From Candidatus Thorarchaeota archaeon (GTDB taxonomy: Archaea; Asgardarchaeota; Thorarchaeia; Thorarchaeales; Thorarchaeaceae), in assembly GCA_046482545.1 (NCBI GenBank), contig JAWOEX010000024.1:32001-96000 (forward strand): 64,000 bases of DNA. The letters are read 5' to 3'. The notes under the pieces were generated by a model. The model searched no databases, was not told where the DNA came from, and saw nothing but the letters and a program-made list of their open reading frames with translations. This document shows positions 45,131 through 57,387 of this stretch, piece by piece; within the stretch, counting starts at the first letter, position 1, and every line of letters begins with the position of its first letter. The translations under genes were made by a program, and so were the position numbers.

Positions 45131-45754
45131 ATGTCTGAAGCGGTGGTTTACTATATTGTCAAGGGCAGACTCATTCGCATGCCCAGAAAAGGAGCATTCG
45201 GAAAGAGTGATTGTTACTTGGTAGATGCAGGTGAAGAATTGTATCTTTGGGTAGGCTCTGAACAGGAGACAGAAGAACATACACTAGCTCAGGCAGCGGA
45301 AGTACTCAAACAGATGAAAGAGAAAGATATCGAACTACTTCGTCTTCCAGCCGGACACGAACCTCGAGAATTCCGAGATCTTTTTCCAGCCTTTCGCGTA
45401 ACTACAGAAAGTGCAGAGAGGTTCGTACAAGAAGTAGCTACTAGGCGGCATGAACACAGGCTCTGGATGGTGCACAAGATAGAAGGTGAAGTCTGGTTTC
45501 GCGAAGTACCCGCACACGAAGATTCGCTCGAAAGCGATAGCGTTTTTGTTCTTGATACGTGGGAGAAATTCTACATCTGGAGAGGAAAAGATGCAGATAC
45601 AGCCGACTTGGATCCAATGGTCATAGTTAGAGGCTATGATGCCCGTAGAATTGGACCGCGGGACGTCTCCGTAGTGGATGAAGGTGAAGAATCAGAGGGT
45701 TTCAAGCAGGATCTCATTACAGATCAAGAAGAAAAGCTCTATTCCAACATGTAA
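45131..45754 (+). CDS. Two-domain gelsolin-like protein (Asgard 2DGel-type actin regulator)
   Basis: Two gelsolin repeats: 'SDCYLVDAGEELYLWVG...GHEPREFRDLF' and 'SLESDSVFVLDTWEKFYIWRGK...VDEGEESEGF'. Confidence 0.88.
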   Translation: MSEAVVYYIVKGRLIRMPRKGAFGKSDCYLVDAGEELYLWVGSEQETEEHTLAQAAEVLKQMKEKDIELLRLPAGHEPREFRDLFPAFRVTTESAERFVQEVATRRHEHRLWMVHKIEGEVWFREVPAHEDSLESDSVFVLDTWEKFYIWRGKDADTADLDPMVIVRGYDARRIGPRDVSVVDEGEESEGFKQDLITDQEEKLYSNM

Positions 45755-45758
45755 ATCG

Positions 45759-47213
45759 TTATACCAATCTGTAATGGCCGGACCGTGGTTCATAAGCCGC
45801 AGCGTCCTTTTTCATTTCCTCAAGCGTTCTTGCAGCGACTTGAAGTTCTACCTCAGCTTCATCAGCAATCTCTTGCAAAGTGGGCCCTAGCGAGTTCGCC
45901 TTACCAGTATCAAGACTTCGTAATGCACGGTGTACCTTGGTATTATAGCGATGTAGCGGACGGCCTTTACCCCAATCGGCCTCCGCACCCTCTCTAAGTG
46001 CAGCAATCTCAGCGAATTCCTTCAGAGCGGGTTCCAGTATATTGTCCCATGCCCGCTTCAAATCCTTAGCGGTTACTTTTGTGTCCCAGTCGGCCCGGGC
46101 CGTAGACCGCGCTAATCGTATTGTACTCAGAGGTCGCCCCATCCGGTCAGCATCTAGTAGATGACCCCGTCCCAGAACCGATTTTTCAAAGCCGAAACTA
46201 TCTCTCAACAGCTGTAATCGGGAAACTACATGTTCTGTAGCAGACTCTATGGCTCTCTCAGAAATTTGGGGCGTCAAAAGCTGGTAGGTTATAGATGATT
46301 TCAGAATTGGGAGGCTCAAAGCCTCCGCATTACTACTTTCAACCCAGAAGTCCTCCGTTGCCAATGCCAATGGGACATCAGGGAGTGCTGCAGTTTCGCT
46401 ATCGGTGAGTGCTCCCATCGACACTTCGCGGAACCCGGAAGGGTCAATCCGTTCGACACAGAGCTTTCTAATTTTGGATTTATTCGTCTTTCCTACATCA
46501 AGACGCCAGCGTCTAGGAGTAGTTACCTGCAGTCCACGGACATTCCTGTTAACAGGCCAATTTCCTCGAAGAGTGGGTGGAACAGCCTTTTTCATGAATG
46601 AGAATAGGCGGCGCACCTGTTTCTTGGATGCGATGGCTTGGATACCTGTGGCTAAACCCCCCACAGCATCCTGAAATGGCGGACTTGATACGAAAAGACG
46701 AGCGAAAACTCGCTTACTGGCTTCAGCCATACCCACATCCTTGAACAGCAACCCAGAAAGGTCCTTGAGTGACATCGGTGGCTGAATCTCCGAAAGAAAA
46801 TCGAAGTCGACTGTCTCCAAAGCCTCAGCTGAAATCGCCCTCACAGTCTCATCTGACTGCTGTAGGACCGAAGGAACGGCTATGTTCCTGCCTTCCACCT
46901 CTACTATGGCTCCGTCTGGAGGCTGTGTTTGATTCTCGTGGAGATATACAAAAACACCCCCAAGCATGTAAGGACTTGGAGAAAGCAGGAAAACCGAATC
47001 ATTGGCGGTATGCCGTACGAATCCCTTGTATCTCCTCCGGCGACTGCTGACCTTTTGGCTGAATTCCCTGTGGAATCTGTGCTCCCATGCAGTGAGCTGC
47101 GAACCGAATTCTCTATCGAATATATCAGCTGCTGTTGAGACATCAGCCAATCTATCACGCGGCTTTCCGTAATCCTCTATCAGGTCAATCGGTTCCAGAA
47201 TGACCACCTTCAT
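45759..47213 (-). CDS. MCM-derived protein with degenerate ATPase core (OB, AAA lid, winged helix)
   Basis: MCM-like segments 'PDGAIVEVEG', 'TPQISERAIE', lid 'RPLSTIRLARSTARA...VTAKDLKRA', C-terminal WH 'YEPRSGHYRLV'; no Walker A/B. Probable start 47213. Confidence 0.65.
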   Translation of the reverse strand: MKVVILEPIDLIEDYGKPRDRLADVSTAADIFDREFGSQLTAWEHRFHREFSQKVSSRRRRYKGFVRHTANDSVFLLSPSPYMLGGVFVYLHENQTQPPDGAIVEVEGRNIAVPSVLQQSDETVRAISAEALETVDFDFLSEIQPPMSLKDLSGLLFKDVGMAEASKRVFARLFVSSPPFQDAVGGLATGIQAIASKKQVRRLFSFMKKAVPPTLRGNWPVNRNVRGLQVTTPRRWRLDVGKTNKSKIRKLCVERIDPSGFREVSMGALTDSETAALPDVPLALATEDFWVESSNAEALSLPILKSSITYQLLTPQISERAIESATEHVVSRLQLLRDSFGFEKSVLGRGHLLDADRMGRPLSTIRLARSTARADWDTKVTAKDLKRAWDNILEPALKEFAEIAALREGAEADWGKGRPLHRYNTKVHRALRSLDTGKANSLGPTLQEIADEAEVELQVAARTLEEMKKDAAAYEPRSGHYRLV

Positions 47214-48186
47214 ATCGCTTGTTTGTATTTTGATTCTCGCGCTGCGCATAAACTTCATAGGCTTTGGGATATTTTTCGGCCAACTCTTCTATTGATGGAA
47301 GCCTGTCTTTGTAAGGCTTATACAGCTCGCCTAAATCTCTACGAGAAAGTTCGGACTGGATAATCGGTTGCAGTTCATCATTGATTTCATAGCCAAGATA
47401 ATGGCGGTAACCTGTCTTGCATGCAGCTGCAGTGGTTCCATTTCCCATGAACGGGTCTAGGACTAGGTCCCCAGGCCGAGAAGAGTAGTCGACGCATCTC
47501 ATAACCACTTCTAAAGGCAAGCGAGTTCCGTTCTTGGCGCAACCAGCACGATACTGCCGGTTCATATTCCAGACATCAAGTGGATAATGCTGAATTTTAT
47601 TGAAGAAGTATGATTGTGGGTACTTCACGAAAAGAAGTACATGATAGTGGCTAGTAACGAACTTTTTGCGGGTGAAGACACCGAATGGATATTTCCAGAT
47701 GACATGATTGAGAATCGAAAGGCCCGCTAGGCGTCCTCCCCTAAGAATGGATTCTAGGTTGCTCCAACCACTGAACACGTATGCCGAACCATGCTTTTTC
47801 AGGAGGCGTGGTATCTCAGCCATCCAGTGCCTCGTGAAATCCATATATGAACCATTAATTTCCTCGTAACCATCTACCACATGTTCTTGATTTCGATTGT
47901 AGACACTGCTTTTCCCGTCAAATTCTATCCCAAAAGGCGGATCAGCGATTACCAAATCTGTGCACCCATCTGGGAGTTTGCTCATCGCCTTGACACAATC
48001 TTGGTAGTGTATCCTGTCACAAATGTCTGATGGAATCTCTTCGGCTTTTTGTTGGTATAGGTTTCTCGCTTCATCCACAGTCCAGTCATAGGTCGGTTCG
48101 AAATAGAATTCGGCAAGATTTGGAACATAGCCTGAGCTACTTGCGTCAGAACTACTGCTATCATTGTTGCCATCGTTTACAGTCAT
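47185..48186 (-). CDS. Beta-class N4-cytosine/N6-adenine DNA methyltransferase (orphan)
   Basis: Motif IV 'ADPPF' precedes motif I 'DPFMGNGTT' and 'GYEI'. Confidence 0.93.
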   Translation of the reverse strand: MTVNDGNNDSSSSDASSSGYVPNLAEFYFEPTYDWTVDEARNLYQQKAEEIPSDICDRIHYQDCVKAMSKLPDGCTDLVIADPPFGIEFDGKSSVYNRNQEHVVDGYEEINGSYMDFTRHWMAEIPRLLKKHGSAYVFSGWSNLESILRGGRLAGLSILNHVIWKYPFGVFTRKKFVTSHYHVLLFVKYPQSYFFNKIQHYPLDVWNMNRQYRAGCAKNGTRLPLEVVMRCVDYSSRPGDLVLDPFMGNGTTAAACKTGYRHYLGYEINDELQPIIQSELSRRDLGELYKPYKDRLPSIEELAEKYPKAYEVYAQRENQNTNKRYEGGHSGTD

Positions 48187-49184: not shown

Positions 49185-49748
49185 GTGGAATACATGACAG
49201 AAGAAGCGACAGAAAGGAGAGAACCTATATCACGTCGGCCGGCTAGGGTCGACCCAGAATTCAAGCACGAAGTGTTGAGAGAGCCGGGTGGCGAGAGCCT
49301 GAAACAGTGCTTCCAGTGTGGTACGTGTACAGCAGGATGTATCATCGCAGAACATAGTAAAGAGTATCAAGGACCTCGAAAAATCATAAGGATGGCTCAA
49401 CTTGGTCTAGTTGAAGAACTTCTCTCAAGTCCTGAGCTCTGGTACTGTAGTACCTGTTATTCCTGCACAGAGGTCTGCCCACAGGGAGTCACGGCCAAGG
49501 ACATCATCAGGGTGCTTCAGAACATAGCTGTGAAACGGGGTTACGTGCCCAAGGGGTATCAGAAGATAGCTGAGAGTATCCTGAAAACCGGCTGGGCACA
49601 AAAGGTCAGTAGATTCAAGCTGAAGAAGAGGGAGAAACAGGGGCTTCCACCGCTCCCCGATACGGATCGGGATGAGGTTGAGAAGCTAATGAAGACCACC
49701 GGGCTAGATGAGATTGCTGGAGCTGAAGAAGCGGAGGAAGAAGAATGA
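49185..49748 (+). CDS. hdrC: Heterodisulfide reductase subunit C
   Basis: CFQCGTCTAGC and LWYCSTCYSCTEVCP. Confidence 0.93.
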   Translation: MEYMTEEATERREPISRRPARVDPEFKHEVLREPGGESLKQCFQCGTCTAGCIIAEHSKEYQGPRKIIRMAQLGLVEELLSSPELWYCSTCYSCTEVCPQGVTAKDIIRVLQNIAVKRGYVPKGYQKIAESILKTGWAQKVSRFKLKKREKQGLPPLPDTDRDEVEKLMKTTGLDEIAGAEEAEEEE

Positions 49749-50695
49749 GCAGTACAGAACCAAAGGACATCTCGATTCCTGAAGTAGAGGAGCATACTGA
49801 GCCCATCAAATACAGCTTCTTTTTGGGCTGTGTTATACCAAACAGAGAGGTTGCCTATGAAATCTCTACACGACGTGTGTGCAAGGAACTGGGAATTGAG
49901 CTTCTCGACATGAAAGGCGCAAGCTGCTGTGGTCTTCCTGTGGACACGGTTAGTCATGAGTCTTCATTGGCACTTGCTGCTAGGAATCTGACTATTGCTG
50001 AGGAAATGGGGCATGATATTTTTACTATTTGTACTGGCTGCACAGGAACACTCGCAAAGGCAAATTGTCAGTTGAAAGAAAACAGAAGAACCCGGGAACG
50101 CGTCAATGCGGAGCTTGGTGAGATTGGCCGAGAGTTCAAGGGTACGATCGAGGTCAAGCATCTCGTTCGGAGCCTTGTGGAAGATTTCGGTCTGAACAAC
50201 CTTAGGAAACGAATCAAGCGCCCTCTGAAGAGCCTGAGGATTGCGGGACACTACGGCTGCCATGTACTGATGCCCAGCAAGTATCTCCGTTTCGATGATC
50301 CAGGGAATCCCCACATTCTGAATGAACTGATTGAACTGACCGGGGCAGAGTTGGTGCGATATGAGGGCGAGCGGGACTGTTGCGGAGCCATGATACTCAC
50401 GGTCAATACAGACCTCCCCAGTGAGCTTGCTGCAACTAAGCTACACAACGTGAAAGGGGCGGGAGTAGACGCACTCACCACGATTTGTCCGTCGTGTCAC
50501 CGTCAGTACGACGGTAACCAGCGAGCTGCAGAGAAGAGGTATGACGAGGAATTTGGCGTTCCAGTCTTGCACTACCCACAGCTACTCGGGCTTGCTCTGG
50601 GTATCCCGCCAGAGGAGCTCGCGCTTAATGATCTGAAGGTCAAACCCACATCTCTTGTGGACAAACTGGAAAGAGAACGAGAACAAGACAGTTAG
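49745..50695 (+). CDS. hdrB: Heterodisulfide reductase subunit B
   Basis: Two CCG domains: 'LGCVIP..SCCG..CTGC' and 'HYGCH..DCCG..CPSC'. Confidence 0.95.
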   Translation: MSSTEPKDISIPEVEEHTEPIKYSFFLGCVIPNREVAYEISTRRVCKELGIELLDMKGASCCGLPVDTVSHESSLALAARNLTIAEEMGHDIFTICTGCTGTLAKANCQLKENRRTRERVNAELGEIGREFKGTIEVKHLVRSLVEDFGLNNLRKRIKRPLKSLRIAGHYGCHVLMPSKYLRFDDPGNPHILNELIELTGAELVRYEGERDCCGAMILTVNTDLPSELAATKLHNVKGAGVDALTTICPSCHRQYDGNQRAAEKRYDEEFGVPVLHYPQLLGLALGIPPEELALNDLKVKPTSLVDKLEREREQDS

Positions 50696-50707
50696 GAGCT
50701 CTGTATC

Positions 50708-51229
50708 ATGTGGAACTACCATGCCGTCTGGAAAGTTTTGGAAGAGTTACTGGGCGACCTGAAGCAAAGGGAGGCTGAGATACCTGAAGACTTCTTGACG
50801 AAACTGAAAGCAGCCCATGGGAATATCAACATCATGAAGGCCGACCCTACTCATGAAGACATCATGGACAAGGTAGAAGAGCAGTTGAACAATCTGGAGG
50901 GACAACTAATCTATCTCGCTGAGGACAGAGTCGGTCCCGACTATGCCGACAAATGGATAACCAAGATTAAAGAGGCCAGAGAATCAGAGCCTGAGGTATC
51001 AAGGGCAAAACCATTCTCTCCAGGAGTTCCACGGGCAGACTACTGGATTCGCCTCACAGTAGGAGATGTGATAAAACGTCCGGACATAGAGAAGATGGCC
51101 TCAGAACTGGGTCTCTCAATAAAAGAGGATGCTGCTAGTACAATCATAGTCCATGGCGATGAAACCAAGGTGAAAAGTCTGGTAAAGGTCATGACTAGAA
51201 AGATGGGGGAAGAGAAAGGCAGAGAATAG
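50708..51229 (+). CDS. DUF2096-like protein
   Basis: 'WKVLEELLGDLK...IP....LKAA..NINI', 'FSPGVPR...WIR'; follows hdrB. Confidence 0.7.
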   Translation: MWNYHAVWKVLEELLGDLKQREAEIPEDFLTKLKAAHGNINIMKADPTHEDIMDKVEEQLNNLEGQLIYLAEDRVGPDYADKWITKIKEARESEPEVSRAKPFSPGVPRADYWIRLTVGDVIKRPDIEKMASELGLSIKEDAASTIIVHGDETKVKSLVKVMTRKMGEEKGRE

Positions 51230-51246
51230 TCTCTGCCAAACTCGTT

Positions 51247-51738
51247 CTATTGCTCTGCTTCTGAGGCTTCAGCTGCTGTAATCCGTGCGGTGGTTGCAGC
51301 TATTCGAGATTTCCTTGCTGTGGTCTCTCGGGTCTGCAACGAGAGGGCCTCCACCGGACAGGCCTCTATACACTCTGGTTCCCCATCACAGAGATCACAG
51401 GCGATGGCTATGCCGTCAGGATTAATCGTGATGGCACCGAAGTCGCATGCCTCAACACACCAACCACATCCATTACACTTGTCCTCATCAACAATAATAT
51501 GACCATCTTCCTCACTTTGCTGCAAGGCATCTCTTGGACAAGCGATGACACATGGAGCGTCTTCGCACATCATACAAGTTATTGAGAGATTACCGCTCGG
51601 ATAGACACGAACAGCCCTGATTCGAGACCTGAGGGGATTGAATACACCCTCTTTCTCAAGGGAACACACATATTCACAGACAGTACAACCTGTACAAAGA
51701 TCTGGGTCACAACCCACAAACTTGTGTAATTTTGCCAT
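51247..51738 (-). CDS. 4x[4Fe-4S] electron-transfer subunit of AOR (DmsB/AorA-like)
   Basis: CTGCTVCEYVC, CMMCEDAPCVIACP, CNGCGWCVEAC, CDLC..PECIEACP. Confidence 0.9.
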   Translation of the reverse strand: MAKLHKFVGCDPDLCTGCTVCEYVCSLEKEGVFNPLRSRIRAVRVYPSGNLSITCMMCEDAPCVIACPRDALQQSEEDGHIIVDEDKCNGCGWCVEACDFGAITINPDGIAIACDLCDGEPECIEACPVEALSLQTRETTARKSRIAATTARITAAEASEAEQ

Positions 51739-51751
51739 TTTCTTACCTCCA

Positions 51752-53662
51752 CTATCCCTTTGTTTTCTTCTTCTTTGATGATTTCTTTTTCCCGTCTTTC
51801 TTCTTCTTTGAAACAGCCTTCTTCACGTCTTCTAGGTATTCTGCATAATCCATGAGTCCCAACTCCTTGAGCTTGGCATTTGTTGGAATACCCTCTTTCG
51901 ACCAGCCTCGCGTTTCATAGTAGTCATCAAGAAGGAGGTCTAGTTCTTCCTGAGTGACAAGCGAACCCTTTGCGATTCCCGATTTGATGGGATCTTTCAT
52001 GCATCGAATTGGCAATGTGTCCTCCTCACGACCAATCCCCTCTCTGAGGTTGTAGATCTTGCCCAAGTTGCTAATCCGCTCACCACAGCGTTGCATCTCC
52101 TCGGCAGTCATCGGAATACCGGTAGCCAGAGAGTACATCTTTGCATACATCTCGTAATCCCAAATGCGTCTTGAGAACTTGCATATGATAAGAGAGTCCA
52201 TGATGCTGTAGAGGTCCTCTCCATCAATGACCAGTTGCCCTCTTCCCTTTTCAGCCTTGAAACGGTCGACTTGACCTTTCAAATCCGGTCCGTAGGCGCC
52301 ATGTCGCTGATGGTCTGCGCCTCTGCGGGATACCGCATAACCCAAAGCACAGGTCTTAAGGCCTCGTACGTCATAACCCGTCATCTCTACACCTTTGATA
52401 TGCATGGCGAACTTCTCTGAGCCCTTTCCTAGCTTCGCAGCTGCACGTTTCACACCCCCAGCCAAGAGATCACCAATATCTTCTCTGAGGGCAATCTTCT
52501 CTACCATTTCACACATGCCTTCGGCGTTACCGAACTCAAGCTCGATACCACCTGTATCCTTCTTGGTGATGATGCCTTTCTCATAGGCCTCCATAGCAAA
52601 TGCGATTACAACACCTGTGGATAGAGCATCTGTTCCATAGAGATCACAGAGCTGTACTGCTCGAACGATGGCATCTGGTCTGTCGACACCTGTGCACGAA
52701 CCAAAAGCATAGGTCGGCTCATACTCGATACGACCGATTGCACCTTTGAAGGGCCCCTCTCTTACAATGGCGACATGCTCACAGCGCATTCCACAGCTGT
52801 CGCAGGCCTGTATTTTCTCAACGTGCATTTCATTGAGAGCCTCTCCGCTGATTTTGTCCGCCTTTTCGAATACTGCATCCTGCCAGTTTCTCGTGGGCAT
52901 GGCAGCCTGTTTGTTCAGTGCTAGAACGTTGGCAGCAGTACCAAGATTCCGGTACTTCTCTGTGGCAGGTCCCTTTGCCTCCTCATAGATTTCAGATGTC
53001 ATTTCTTTGAAGCCTTCAACATCTGCAATCTCAACATCATTAAACCCTCTTACTGCGAGAGCCTTGAGGTTCTTAGATCCCATTACCGCGCCCATTCCGG
53101 TGCGGCCAGCTGCCCTGAGTCGGTCATTAATAATGGCTGAAAAACGGACGAGATTCTCTCCTGCTGGACCGATTGATGCAATTCTCACCCCGGGATCTCC
53201 CAAGTCCGATTTGATCGTATCCTCCGTTTCCCAGTTACTCTTACCCCACAGGTGGCTGGCGTCCATAATCTGCACGCTCTCATCCTCCAAGTAGAGATAT
53301 GACGGGCGCTCAGCTCTTCCTGTCACCATCACGATATCATATCCAGCTCTGCGGAGCTCTGAACCAAAAAAGCCAGTTGAATATGCCTCGCCAAGTCCTT
53401 GGGACTGGGGAGACTTCGCTGCGACACCCCACTTACTGGCGCTCCCGGGTATCATCATGCCACAGAACGTCCCGCACGAGAATACTATCGGATTCTCGGG
53501 GTCGAAAGCATCTGTACCAGGTCGCTGGTGATCTGTAATCATTTTAATACCGAATCCAGCACCGCCAAGGAATTTCTTAGCCATTTCCTCGCCGAGCGGT
53601 TTGGTCTTCGTCTTTCCAGTGCTCAGGTTAACGTACAAGATATTGTTCGCGTATCCTTTCAC
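51752..53662 (-). CDS. aor: Tungsten-containing aldehyde:ferredoxin oxidoreductase family protein
   Basis: 'LGGAG', 'KSPQ', 'IGPAGEN', 'GRTGMGAVMGSKNLKA', CxxC...C, 'EYE', 'DLYGTDALSTG', 'RGADH'; GTG start at 53662. Confidence 0.95.
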   Translation of the reverse strand: MKGYANNILYVNLSTGKTKTKPLGEEMAKKFLGGAGFGIKMITDHQRPGTDAFDPENPIVFSCGTFCGMMIPGSASKWGVAAKSPQSQGLGEAYSTGFFGSELRRAGYDIVMVTGRAERPSYLYLEDESVQIMDASHLWGKSNWETEDTIKSDLGDPGVRIASIGPAGENLVRFSAIINDRLRAAGRTGMGAVMGSKNLKALAVRGFNDVEIADVEGFKEMTSEIYEEAKGPATEKYRNLGTAANVLALNKQAAMPTRNWQDAVFEKADKISGEALNEMHVEKIQACDSCGMRCEHVAIVREGPFKGAIGRIEYEPTYAFGSCTGVDRPDAIVRAVQLCDLYGTDALSTGVVIAFAMEAYEKGIITKKDTGGIELEFGNAEGMCEMVEKIALREDIGDLLAGGVKRAAAKLGKGSEKFAMHIKGVEMTGYDVRGLKTCALGYAVSRRGADHQRHGAYGPDLKGQVDRFKAEKGRGQLVIDGEDLYSIMDSLIICKFSRRIWDYEMYAKMYSLATGIPMTAEEMQRCGERISNLGKIYNLREGIGREEDTLPIRCMKDPIKSGIAKGSLVTQEELDLLLDDYYETRGWSKEGIPTNAKLKELGLMDYAEYLEDVKKAVSKKKKDGKKKSSKKKKTKG

Positions 53663-53997
53663 GTTGTCCACTCTCAGGCAATCCGTGACGTATATATTGG
53701 GGATGAAGAGAAAGTCAATCCATGATAAAGGTATCGAAGCCCGACCACTCAATTATCAATACAGTTAACCTCGGATTAGCAATGATATGAGTCGTCGATT
53801 CAACAACCTCTAAGATGAAACAGAGATTCGTGTGACATGCAGGTACCCATTCATGATTGAGAGTCACAAACGTCGAGGATTATACACAAGATTATCCATC
53901 TCTGTTTTGGCTTCTTACAAAACAGATTTAATATATCCAGCTTTGCGAAACGCATCACGGTCACGACACAGCAAGCCAATAAAGGGAGAATAGACAT

Positions 53998-54864
53998 TTG
54001 CCGCTACGACTGAAAAAGACAGAAACCGATTATAGTCTGGTCATCGAACGAAACCTCTACACGAAGCGCTTTCTGCTTACCGTGGACAGAGAAAAGTGCA
54101 GAGGCTGTGGTATATGTGAAACAGTCTGCCATTCTGATGCAATCTCCCTCGTCAACAGAGAGAAGACAGTGGTTGATGGGGAAGAGGTCACGCAAAGAGC
54201 TATCGTTGATATTGACGAAAACCTTTGCGACCACTGCGGTATGTGTGAAGCGATATGTCCGTTTTGGGCAATCGAGCATACCGTCAATGGTGAGCCGGTC
54301 GTGTGTGTCCATGAAACAGAGAGTTTTCCGCAGTATATTCGTGAGATTCGAGTGGACGAAGAGGAGATATCTCCATATCTGGAAAAGGCAGATGAGTTAT
54401 GCCCGTTGAATCTCGTCTCAGTGGAAGACGGAGAACTGTTCATTGATGAGAAATCGTGCCCTTGCTGTAGGCAGTGCGAAGACAGGACAAACGGTGCGAT
54501 TCTAGTTCGTCCCATCTTCATGGGTTCTATCATTATCAATCAGGAAGTGTGCCCCGAAGACTGTAAGAGCTGCTTAGATATCTGTCCTGTCGAGGCTCTG
54601 GAACTCCACGAGGACGGCAAGGTCTATCCCTTGGATAGATATTGCGTCTACTGTGAGGCCTGCATCAAGGTCTGTCCAGAACCGGACGAGGCACTTATTG
54701 TCACGCGGACATCAGTTCGACACACCCCTGTGAAGTCTGGGGCGTGGAACAAAGCATTAGAAAAACTAGCGACGTCTGATGCGTTCGAGCGTGAAGTTCG
54801 GACAAAAAGGACAAGCAAAGTTGCGGAGGCCATGAAACGACGAAACTTGGGCGGAGGAAAGTGA
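53998..54864 (+). CDS. Polyferredoxin (FwdF/MvhB-like)
   Basis: Several CxxCxxCxxxCP motifs; FwdF-like N-terminus. Confidence 0.85.
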   Translation: MPLRLKKTETDYSLVIERNLYTKRFLLTVDREKCRGCGICETVCHSDAISLVNREKTVVDGEEVTQRAIVDIDENLCDHCGMCEAICPFWAIEHTVNGEPVVCVHETESFPQYIREIRVDEEEISPYLEKADELCPLNLVSVEDGELFIDEKSCPCCRQCEDRTNGAILVRPIFMGSIIINQEVCPEDCKSCLDICPVEALELHEDGKVYPLDRYCVYCEACIKVCPEPDEALIVTRTSVRHTPVKSGAWNKALEKLATSDAFEREVRTKRTSKVAEAMKRRNLGGGK

Positions 54865-54870
54865 TTAACG

Positions 54871-57387
54871 TTGAATGACAAACAGACCGAAGAAAATGAT
54901 GAGAAACTCGTGGCGGAAGAACCCCGAATTGGCGTCTTCATCTGTCACTGCGGCTCGAACATAGCCGGCACTCTGGACATCGACGCGCTGGAGGAATATG
55001 CTAAAACACTTGATTCTGTTGTCTACGTGAAGCAGAACCGATACACATGTGCTGATCCTGGTCAGGAGGAGATTCGTGAAGGAATTAAGGATTACAAACT
55101 CGACAAGGTGGTGGTAGCTGCATGTTCGCCCCGGATGCATGAACCCACCTTCAGGGTCACGGTCTCCGAGGCAGGAATGAACCCGTATAACTTCATTATG
55201 GCCAATATCAGGGAACACTGCTCATGGTGTCATGAGGAAAGTGAAGACTCTTTGCAAAAGGCAAAAGAGATAATCAGGATGGCTGTTGCGAAGGCTGCAC
55301 TATCCGTTCCCCTCGAGAAGTTTGAAGTGCCTGTGACGGACAGGGCCATGGTCATTGGAGGTGGAGTTTCCGGAATACACGCTGCTCTTGACCTCGCCAA
55401 TATGGGCTACAAGACCTACCTTGTTGAGCGTGATGAGAGTATTGGCGGTCACATGGCTCAACTCGACAAAACTTTCCCTACACTAGACTGTTCAATCTGC
55501 ATCGAGGGGCCAAAGATGGTCGAGGTGGGCAGACACCCCAACATCGAAATTATCAGTTTCTCTGAAGTTGTAAATGTTGATGGTTACGTCGGAAACTTTA
55601 AGGTGAGAATCCGAAAGAATCCCCGATACGTCATCCAAGATAATTGTACAGGCTGCGGCGAGTGTTCAGATGTCTGCCCAGTCGAGTATCCTAATGCGTG
55701 GGAACAGAATCTCGGAACACGAAAGGCAATTTCCGTCCCATTCCCACAGGCTGTCCCTCTCGTGTACACTATAAATCGCGACCACTGTATCGAGTGTTAC
55801 AAGTGTGTTGATGTCTGTGGCGAACGGCAGGCTATCGACTTCGAACAGGAGCCTGAAGAGATTGAAGTGGAGGTGGGGACTATCACAGTGGCCACGGGCT
55901 ACCACTCCATGTACGAACCTGTCAGTGGCGGTGAGTTTGAGTCTGCCCAAGATGGTTATTATGGCTACGGTCGGTTTGAGAACGTTGTCACGGGCCTTGA
56001 AACAGAGCGACTTGTCTGTGCGGGAGGACCTACGGGAGGCGAGGTCATTCGTAGGTCTGATGGGAAGCATCCTCATCGTGTAGGCTTCATCCAATGTGTG
56101 GGCTCTCGAGATGTCAATAAGTACGAGTATTGCTCCAATTTCTGCTGCATGTACACTCTGAAGAATGCCATTCTCATCAAGGAGCACGAGCCTGATACTG
56201 AGATATTCATCTGGTATATCGACATGAGGACTCCTGGAAAGGGGTATGAGAACTTCTACACCAGAGCAAGAGATGCCGGTTTCACCTTCATCAAGGGGCG
56301 ACCATACGAGGTCATCGAGGACCCGGAAACCAAGAACCTGATTGTACGTTCTGAAGATGTGCTTCTCGGGAAAGAGGTAGAGGTAGAGGTCGATTTGCTA
56401 GTCCTAGCTACAGCCTGCGAACCAAGTTTCGGAACTGGAGATCTTGGTGGGAAGCTTCACATCACCAGAAGCGCCAACGGATTCTTTATGGAGGCGCACC
56501 CGAAGCTCAAGCCTCTGGATACACCTGTTGACGGGATTACCCTGTCGGGGGCTTGCCAGGGTCTAAAGGACATCCCTTACTCAGTATCATCTGGTAGCGG
56601 TGCAGCGTCACGGGCTGCGACCATCCTGTCGAAAGATACCGTTGAGATTGAGCCCATTGTAGCTGTGGTTGACCCTGACAAGTGCATGAATGTGGACCGG
56701 AACTGTGGCATCTGTGTGGACAAGTGCCCCTACGTAGCTATCACGGCTGTCGAAGGTGAGGCTGCTGCAGTAAACGTCGCCAATTGTCATGGTTGTGGAA
56801 CATGCGTTGCTTCCTGTCCCCACGATGCTATCGACCAGATGCATTTTACTGACTCCATGATCTTTTCACAAATCAGAGCAGCGTTGGATGACAAGCCTGA
56901 GGAGAAGATTTTGGTCTTCGCCTGCAACTGGTGCTGCTATGGAGGATCCGACCTTGCGGGAACGAGTCGATTCACCTATCCTCCCAACACCCGCATCATC
57001 AGAGTGATGTGCTCTGGTCGGGTTGATACTGACTTTGTCGCTGAGGCCTATAGGCTGGGTGCTGGAGCGGTCATGGTGGGTGCGTGTCACAGACCTACAG
57101 ACTGTCACTACATCAGTGGAAACCACGTTGCATATGAGAGATTCCAACGATATCAAAAACGACTTGAAAGAGCAGGCATCAGCCCAGAGAGATTTCTCTG
57201 GAAGGAAATATCTGCCGCGGAGGGGCTTATCTTCGCAAAAACAATGAAAAGACTGAACGAGAACATTCAGGACATAGGAATCGACAGAATCAAGGAAGAG
57301 AATGAACAGGCTCGAAAGAGAATTTCAGCTTCTCTAAAGCGGAAGGGCCTCATCCCGGAGACAGAGAAATCTAACCAAGAGGAATAG
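54871..57387 (+). CDS. hdrA: HdrA-MvhD fusion protein
   Basis: 'GVFICHCGSNIAG', 'AACSPRMHE', FAD 'IGGGVSG', 'QCVGSRD...CSNFCC..LK'; C-terminal MvhD 'CNWC..GGSDLAG...RVMCSGRVD...GACH...CHY..GN'. Confidence 0.96.
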   Translation: MNDKQTEENDEKLVAEEPRIGVFICHCGSNIAGTLDIDALEEYAKTLDSVVYVKQNRYTCADPGQEEIREGIKDYKLDKVVVAACSPRMHEPTFRVTVSEAGMNPYNFIMANIREHCSWCHEESEDSLQKAKEIIRMAVAKAALSVPLEKFEVPVTDRAMVIGGGVSGIHAALDLANMGYKTYLVERDESIGGHMAQLDKTFPTLDCSICIEGPKMVEVGRHPNIEIISFSEVVNVDGYVGNFKVRIRKNPRYVIQDNCTGCGECSDVCPVEYPNAWEQNLGTRKAISVPFPQAVPLVYTINRDHCIECYKCVDVCGERQAIDFEQEPEEIEVEVGTITVATGYHSMYEPVSGGEFESAQDGYYGYGRFENVVTGLETERLVCAGGPTGGEVIRRSDGKHPHRVGFIQCVGSRDVNKYEYCSNFCCMYTLKNAILIKEHEPDTEIFIWYIDMRTPGKGYENFYTRARDAGFTFIKGRPYEVIEDPETKNLIVRSEDVLLGKEVEVEVDLLVLATACEPSFGTGDLGGKLHITRSANGFFMEAHPKLKPLDTPVDGITLSGACQGLKDIPYSVSSGSGAASRAATILSKDTVEIEPIVAVVDPDKCMNVDRNCGICVDKCPYVAITAVEGEAAAVNVANCHGCGTCVASCPHDAIDQMHFTDSMIFSQIRAALDDKPEEKILVFACNWCCYGGSDLAGTSRFTYPPNTRIIRVMCSGRVDTDFVAEAYRLGAGAVMVGACHRPTDCHYISGNHVAYERFQRYQKRLERAGISPERFLWKEISAAEGLIFAKTMKRLNENIQDIGIDRIKEENEQARKRISASLKRKGLIPETEKSNQEE

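Follow-up and report, generated by a model that had tools for sequence, protein, structure and literature searches.

MCM-BP is a non-catalytic relative of the MCM proteins that modulates active MCM rings. MCMDC2, which is without Walker motifs, has been proposed to be a modulator of active MCMs (PMC5070785). Among archaea, MCM2 of Methanopyrus kandleri (PDB 3f8t) is an inactive MCM homologue with natural internal deletions, according to passages in two papers (PMC2933578, PMC3972481) that cite Bae et al. 2009. A survey of the Asgard replisome describes MCM as mostly single-copy and leaves a paralogue of the kind considered here unmentioned (PMC12680538). We focus here on an unannotated gene in a 64,000-nucleotide stretch of a Candidatus (Ca.) Thorarchaeota archaeon genome (GCA_046482545.1, contig JAWOEX010000024.1, positions 32,001 to 96,000; hereafter the window), located at 45759..47213 on the minus strand, whose product is an MCM paralogue lacking the ATPase motifs and is termed pseudo-MCM below. 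Dead MCM paralogues as a kind are already known; pseudo-MCM is a real, conserved and, as a family, undescribed example, no published description having been found in the open literature (subscription papers were not covered).

The MCM ancestry of pseudo-MCM becomes visible through profiles and structure. Single-sequence searches of Pfam, NCBIfam, PADLOC and the PDB returned sub-threshold matches only, among them MCM_lid (E 0.064) and the archaeal MCM 8x7t (E 0.16), and more than 200 close homologues were retrieved, most of them labelled Thorarchaeota hypothetical proteins. An exhaustive profile search brought in diverse relatives of 400–525 aa, and the family profile built from the resulting 96 sequences hits archaeal MCMs over their lid and winged helix (E 7.6e-13); the NCBIfam MCM model weakly matches 16 members. 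A genome scan with one distant family protein as query found nothing. Profile–profile comparison with 19 canonical Asgard MCMs gave probabilities of 97.7–99.0, collinear over 421–448 columns that begin in the OB fold and continue through the final strand. Folding from close orthologues only reached a pLDDT (predicted local distance difference test) of 61; a deep alignment was used instead and yielded an AlphaFold model with a pLDDT of 90.7 and a predicted template modelling score (pTM) of 0.85. All of the top 50 Foldseek matches to this model are MCMs, and eleven MCM chains rank first in an independent VIA structure search (Z 12.9–16.9), above RavA, BchI and BrxL (Z 8.9–11.6), the AAA+ domain of PfMCM superposing with Z 16.6 and a root-mean-square deviation (rmsd) of 3.7 Å over 221 residues. 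Structural sequence identity to MCMs is 11–16%, and the matches begin at model residue ~49. The best matches in both sequence and structure are canonical archaeal MCMs (8x7t, SsoMCM 4fdg/6mii, PfMCM 4r7z and the genome's own), which display the same order of OB fold, AAA+ domain, lid and winged helix; the nearest predicted structures are archaeal Atlas clusters of 412–527 aa (score 0.95–0.97). An origin from BrxL, RavA, BchI or ComM was rejected, with Z scores of 8–12 versus 16–19 for MCM and the MCM-type winged helix left unaccounted for. Together, profiles and model confirm pseudo-MCM as an MCM-derived protein with a predicted OB fold, shrunken clade-7 AAA+ core, lid and archaeal-MCM winged helix. 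The first-pass annotation, made from the letters alone, had called the gene an ATPase-dead MCM paralogue, and this identification stands: its peptide landmarks all lie, in MCM order, in the minus-strand open reading frame ending at 45759, and the homology it proposed to check by profile and structure searches exceeds chance.

Domain by domain (all minus strand), pseudo-MCM opens with a family-specific segment (residues 6–50, 47064..47198) bearing a conserved R..G.E....E......F pattern, which replaces MCM subdomain A, absent from both model and alignment. The MCM-type OB fold follows (residues 52–135, 46809..47060), with five strands in the model and a short turn in place of the Zn-finger insertion; no Cys occurs at that site in 87/96 family members. 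The shrunken AAA+ core (residues 143–295, 46329..46787) retains four core strands and a basic hairpin (residues 218–248) with eight Lys/Arg and one Asp/Glu. Within it, the eroded P-loop (residues 188–203, 46605..46652) is reduced to a three-residue loop without glycines. The MCM lid helices (residues 296–414, 45972..46328) and an archaeal MCM-type C-terminal winged helix (residues 419–484, 45762..45959; MCM_WH_arc match in six members) complete the protein. Compared with canonical MCM, pseudo-MCM is ~200 aa shorter, lacks subdomain A, the Zn finger, both Walker motifs and the Arg finger, and has no room for the pre-sensor-1 hairpin.

The motif losses are family-wide, all 96 aligned members being without Walker A, Walker B, the Arg finger, the Zn finger and subdomain A. 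Walker A (GDPGxxKS) is present in 19/19 canonical Asgard MCMs, but not one of the 96 family members has it at the P-loop position; at position 197, just after the cut P-loop, 25 of 56 orthologues have Gln and 19 have Lys. At Walker B (hhhhDE) there is no acidic pair, Thorarchaeota members having one Asp on the probable strand. Of the SRF finger, D279 corresponds to the SRFD Asp, and the Arg position (L277) is Leu in 54 and Met in two of the 56 Thorarchaeota orthologues. For the sensor II arginine, alignments differ, giving G359, a gap or R360, and the basic residue 360, at or beside this position, is the only plausible catalytic remnant. The invariant residues of the family (G185, G186 and R373, the last in the lid) all match MCM structural positions. 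By inference from established AAA+ chemistry, the loss of these motifs excludes a motor role for pseudo-MCM. That nucleotide is nevertheless bound or hydrolyzed through a cryptic, non-canonical site is extremely unlikely: such a site could draw on the basic residue at or beside sensor II (Arg/Lys in 56/56 Thorarchaeota orthologues), on T270 near sensor I, invariant in Thorarchaeota, on D239 of the probable Walker B strand and on E263 (92/96 members), but it would have to operate without P-loop glycines, a conserved lysine, a Walker B acidic pair or an Arg finger, in a protein whose invariant residues map to structural positions.

M. kandleri MCM2 is similar in being archaeal, in having lost Walker A, in its internal deletions and in its length (506 aa), and 3f8t superposes on pseudo-MCM with Z 16.3 and an rmsd of 6.6 Å over 297 residues. 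The ends differ, however. In 3f8t, ~107 residues precede the matched OB fold and the chain ends with the lid (match 108–492 of 506), whereas pseudo-MCM has no A region and retains the winged helix. With the family profile, 3f8t reaches E 1.4e-4, far short of the 7.6e-13 given above for active MCMs. Because the domain ends differ and 3f8t scores below active MCMs, the two are probably independent inactivations.

With respect to the eukaryotic proteins, pseudo-MCM may work like MCMDC2 or MCM-BP, and as an analogy the parallel drawn by the first-pass annotation is fair. Its further suggestion of a precursor is not supported. Pseudo-MCM differs from MCM-BP and MCMDC2 in its archaeal-type winged helix, and its scarcity in Asgard archaea outside Thorarchaeota argues against a eukaryotic precursor. 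MCM_bind (PF09739) matches 0/96 members at E 0.01 and nothing in the genome at E 1, a very remote link being possible; the Atlas MCM-BP score (0.83) falls below the threshold for a lead, and the absence of MCM-BP chains from the structural matches is no evidence either way.

Pseudo-MCM is present in 85/85 relatives of its Thorarchaeota family, half-complete genomes included, and is essentially single-copy. The ratio of nonsynonymous to synonymous substitution rates (dN/dS) is 0.02–0.12, indicating purifying selection; a decaying pseudogene was rejected on the intact frames and a dN/dS of at most 0.12. Thorarchaeota sequences form one clade (support 100). Outside it, full-length copies occur in 7/314 other Asgard genomes, the remaining matches being weak and those listed being the tails of canonical MCMs. 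Of these seven copies, two come from short contigs and group within Bathyarchaeia-type sequences, possibly through transfer or misbinning. Further members were found in 9/331 genomes of Bathyarchaeia (the class of Ca. Bathyarchaeum tardum), in Methanomethyliaceae, in Methanoregula, in one metagenome-assembled genome of Thermoproteota and on plasmid pMETHO01 of Methanomethylovorans hollandica. Pseudo-MCM thus belongs to a broad, patchy archaeal family that is fixed in Thorarchaeota and is not pan-Asgard, and the Asgard-specific module envisaged from the single sequence is not supported.

Patchiness of this kind is what a domesticated mobile or defence gene might leave behind: a dominant-negative decoy poisoning viral, plasmid or host MCM rings, transferred and then fixed in Thorarchaeota. 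Several distant pseudo-MCMs lie in defence or mobile regions, with others near repair genes; homologues adjoin a PstI-type restriction–modification system, a GmrSD/BrxL/integrase set or a DUF1156 methyltransferase with Cdc6 and Cren7, besides the plasmid copy, and extra archaeal MCMs often derive from integrative elements (PMC3914693). We nonetheless consider this origin improbable, since the Thorarchaeota copy is single and, in contrast to defence genes, has stable housekeeping surroundings, PADLOC gives no match, and most distant contexts are housekeeping. Three queries against IMG/VR and GenBank phages recovered no viral relative, in searches that were insensitive.

The source genome also encodes a canonical MCM with all motifs intact and an intein, following GINS and RFC on another contig. 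This intein is ~530 aa long and is inserted after Walker B (contig C28; L034:5974-9633); two MCMs of the same genus are intein-free and 690 aa long. The reading we favour, at a little under even probability, is that pseudo-MCM is an old, conserved MCM duplicate turned non-enzymatic accessory of the canonical helicase, an MCM-binding cap or brake. It would dock on a canonical MCM subunit through its retained OB, AAA+ and lid surfaces, and the subunit interface so formed would be unable to hydrolyze ATP because pseudo-MCM offers neither an Arg finger nor an ATP site. Pseudo-MCM would therefore act on MCM rings as they are assembled, loaded or unloaded, by capping them, holding them open or braking them. 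Its winged helix and its basic hairpin could serve to anchor it to DNA or Orc1/Cdc6. Retention of the scaffold suggests that selection keeps a protein interface in pseudo-MCM.

Complex prediction with the same-genus canonical MCM gave a score of 0.54 (runs 0.54, 0.62 and 0.46) versus 0.00 for the best control, with at least 85% of contacts shared between runs and a partner pLDDT of at least 75. In calibration, 58/80 solved complexes and 2/110 mismatches reached the mark, and scores of 0.60 or under comprised 7 of the 80 solved complexes and both mismatches. The value may stem from resemblance to MCM rings already solved; the modelled contact lends the accessory role weak support. Gene order adds a second line. 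In Ca. B. tardum and a sister genome, pseudo-MCM lies 3 bp upstream of GINS–MCM–Hel308, with RFC on the other side; the run of pseudo-MCM, GINS, MCM and Hel308 is tight and co-oriented (L087:4968-11258; L102:6880-13208). In a further case, from another clade, 5.6 kb separate the homologue from MCM–GINS. Two such cases in ~20 lineages would arise by chance with a probability of ~1% (a back-of-envelope, post hoc figure), and the linkage is suggestive only. Of the first-pass reading, an interaction with canonical MCM is weakly supported by the complex score and the B. tardum run.

Four observations weigh against an accessory of the replicative helicase. Across genera, pseudo-MCM is 47–56% identical versus 71–79% for canonical MCM, and so evolves faster, and its structural identity to MCMs is low (the 11–16% above). 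The Thorarchaeota gene is not near MCM or GINS (in the source genome, contig C40 versus C28). Most distant homologues are without replication neighbours. Finally, the sparse spread in Bathyarchaeia and non-Thorarchaeota Asgard genomes (9/331 and 7/314, as above) means that most archaea replicate without the protein.

The same data could be accommodated by a stand-alone nucleic-acid binder, a monomer or homo-oligomer that uses its OB fold, its basic hairpin and its winged helix to bind single-stranded DNA, forks or specific sites in repair, chromatin or transcription, with no MCM contact. Both DNA-binding-type domains are kept, residues 218–248 are strongly basic, and across ~30 distant loci there is no constant partner gene. 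Genes for repair proteins often lie nearby (Fpg in Thorarchaeota; UvrD, Mre11–Rad50, HhH-GPD and PolB elsewhere), although they vary and may be there by chance. We regard such a binder as rather unlikely: the entire AAA+ and lid scaffold has been retained, which would be superfluous for simple DNA binding, and the weak predicted MCM contact and the GINS–MCM operon case also tell against it. Among these surroundings, an Fpg/Nei glycosylase gene lies two genes downstream of pseudo-MCM in many relatives (e.g., L050:3985-4758), not in the window, and a 525-aa family member is convergent to a DHH and OB-fold (RecJ-like) gene (locus L126:8677-10239).

Immediately upstream of pseudo-MCM lies an apparently solitary gene for a β-class N6/N4 DNA methyltransferase (MTase; 47185..48186, minus strand, 333 aa). 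It matches PF01555 with E 1.7e-31 (110 bits against a cut-off of 26.7), and its DPPF motif at ~82 precedes the S-adenosylmethionine-binding DPFMGNG at ~244, the DPPY-type catalytic motif coming first, as in β-class enzymes. The nearest solved relatives are 8urk and CcrM (6pbd), solitary β-class enzymes with which it shares domain order, the lack of an adjacent nuclease and near-core status in the lineage, a homologue being present in 81/86 family genomes; at 98 versus 830 bits it falls far below the CcrM cut-off. No cognate nuclease is adjacent in linked loci and no DpnII occurs in the genome, other nuclease families not having been searched. No restriction enzyme or nuclease-like reading frame is recognizable among the genes flanking the pair, as had been noted from the window itself.

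By tallies counted by hand from coordinate tables, the METHYLTRANSFERASE link, with the MTase directly upstream of pseudo-MCM and co-oriented, holds in 63/85 relatives (10/16 genera), so the adjacency is by no means peculiar to one genome; the MTase is one gene away in four, elsewhere in 12 and uninformative in six. The two genes are probably co-transcribed. The 12 unlinked genomes span six genera, have their only MTase homologue elsewhere and retain pseudo-MCM; phylogenetically, the unlinked MTases group apart from the linked ones, and both kinds coexist in some genomes. In two genomes (L041, L042), an actin-like gene stands just upstream of pseudo-MCM in place of the MTase. By the same hand count, a gelsolin gene adjoins pseudo-MCM in ~66/85 relatives, among them 11 of the 12 in which the MTase is unlinked, and the block is generally conserved.

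The junction itself had been described as an overlap. The reading frame has 484 codons from ATG 47213, a codon that is AAG in two same-genus genomes in which a Shine–Dalgarno-like motif and CTG 47198 are kept. This motif (AGGTGG, 47204..47209, minus strand; AGGTGA in those two genomes) lies 5 nt before the CTG, which in the alignment falls on the initiator methionine of other orthologues. Translation therefore likely begins at GTG 47207 or at CTG 47198 (~479 aa), rather than at ATG 47213, and the overlap with the MTase, which ends at 47185, is 14–29 bp. The overlap is thus genuine here with a shifted start, and occurs in only 3/33 linked loci, where the median gap is 15 bp and most gaps measure 0–58 bp; translational coupling through a conserved overlap was rejected on this count.

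The first-pass annotation went further and saw in the pair a possible module in which pseudo-MCM may read methylation state; in such a partnership it could also target the enzyme so as to time replication. Adjacency in the linked loci, the near-core status of both genes under purifying selection and a family-wide depletion of GATC are in keeping with this idea, but the pair is separate in the 12 unlinked genomes, gelsolin is an equally stable neighbour, and pseudo-MCM has no methyl-reader domain. Outside Thorarchaeota, a close MTase homologue was found at 0/27 pseudo-MCM loci searched, and annotation shows none at three more; conversely, the MTase family is frequent in two Asgard families without pseudo-MCM (24/27 and 8/10 genomes) and was not found in four Asgard families that have it. 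A dedicated module is accordingly very improbable, and the best explanation is that the MTase is a frequent, probably co-transcribed neighbour and no required partner.

The observed/expected ratio of GATC is 0.41 in the source genome and 0.42–0.60 in pooled Thorarchaeota loci, compared with 1.08 in other Asgard loci. Neither DpnII nor a D12-class Dam was found in the source genome, and the conserved β-class MTase is a candidate GATC enzyme on these sequence grounds. In one Thorarchaeota genus, a ~230-aa gene (L116:4685-5368, L113, L115, L118) that has no match in Pfam and by eye resembles a PD-(D/E)xK nuclease lies directly against the unlinked MTase; in the source genome, a copy with 47% identity (C20:211597-212256) is located at a distance from the MTase. 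This gene is possibly the former cognate nuclease.

On its other side, pseudo-MCM is convergent with the two-repeat gelsolin gene (45131..45754, plus strand) across a 4-bp gap; gelsolin served as a synteny control and lies outside the proposed mechanism. Further flanking genes encode an M20 peptidase, a small membrane protein and a heterodisulfide-reductase-like cluster, and the GC content of the locus is ordinary relative to the window. Upstream (49185-57387), HdrC/HdrB-like, aldehyde ferredoxin oxidoreductase, polyferredoxin and HdrA-MvhD-like genes were recognized by eye.

Archaea are not known to have Cdt1, MCM-BP or ubiquitin-driven unloading, and pseudo-MCM bears on the question of how their MCM rings are opened, loaded and unloaded. 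A larger proposal, which we hold tentatively and with the balance somewhat against it, is that pseudo-MCM represents a widespread archaeal family of non-catalytic MCM regulators, heteromeric with replicative MCM and gating ring assembly or unloading, that would constitute an independent archaeal counterpart of MCM-BP/MCMDC2-like control. Pfam and NCBIfam miss this family. If the proposal is true, MCM would be heteromeric in an Asgard lineage thought to have a single-copy MCM. The members in Ca. B. tardum and on the plasmid of the cultured M. hollandica make it possible to ask directly whether control of the replicative helicase by a pseudo-enzyme has originated repeatedly.

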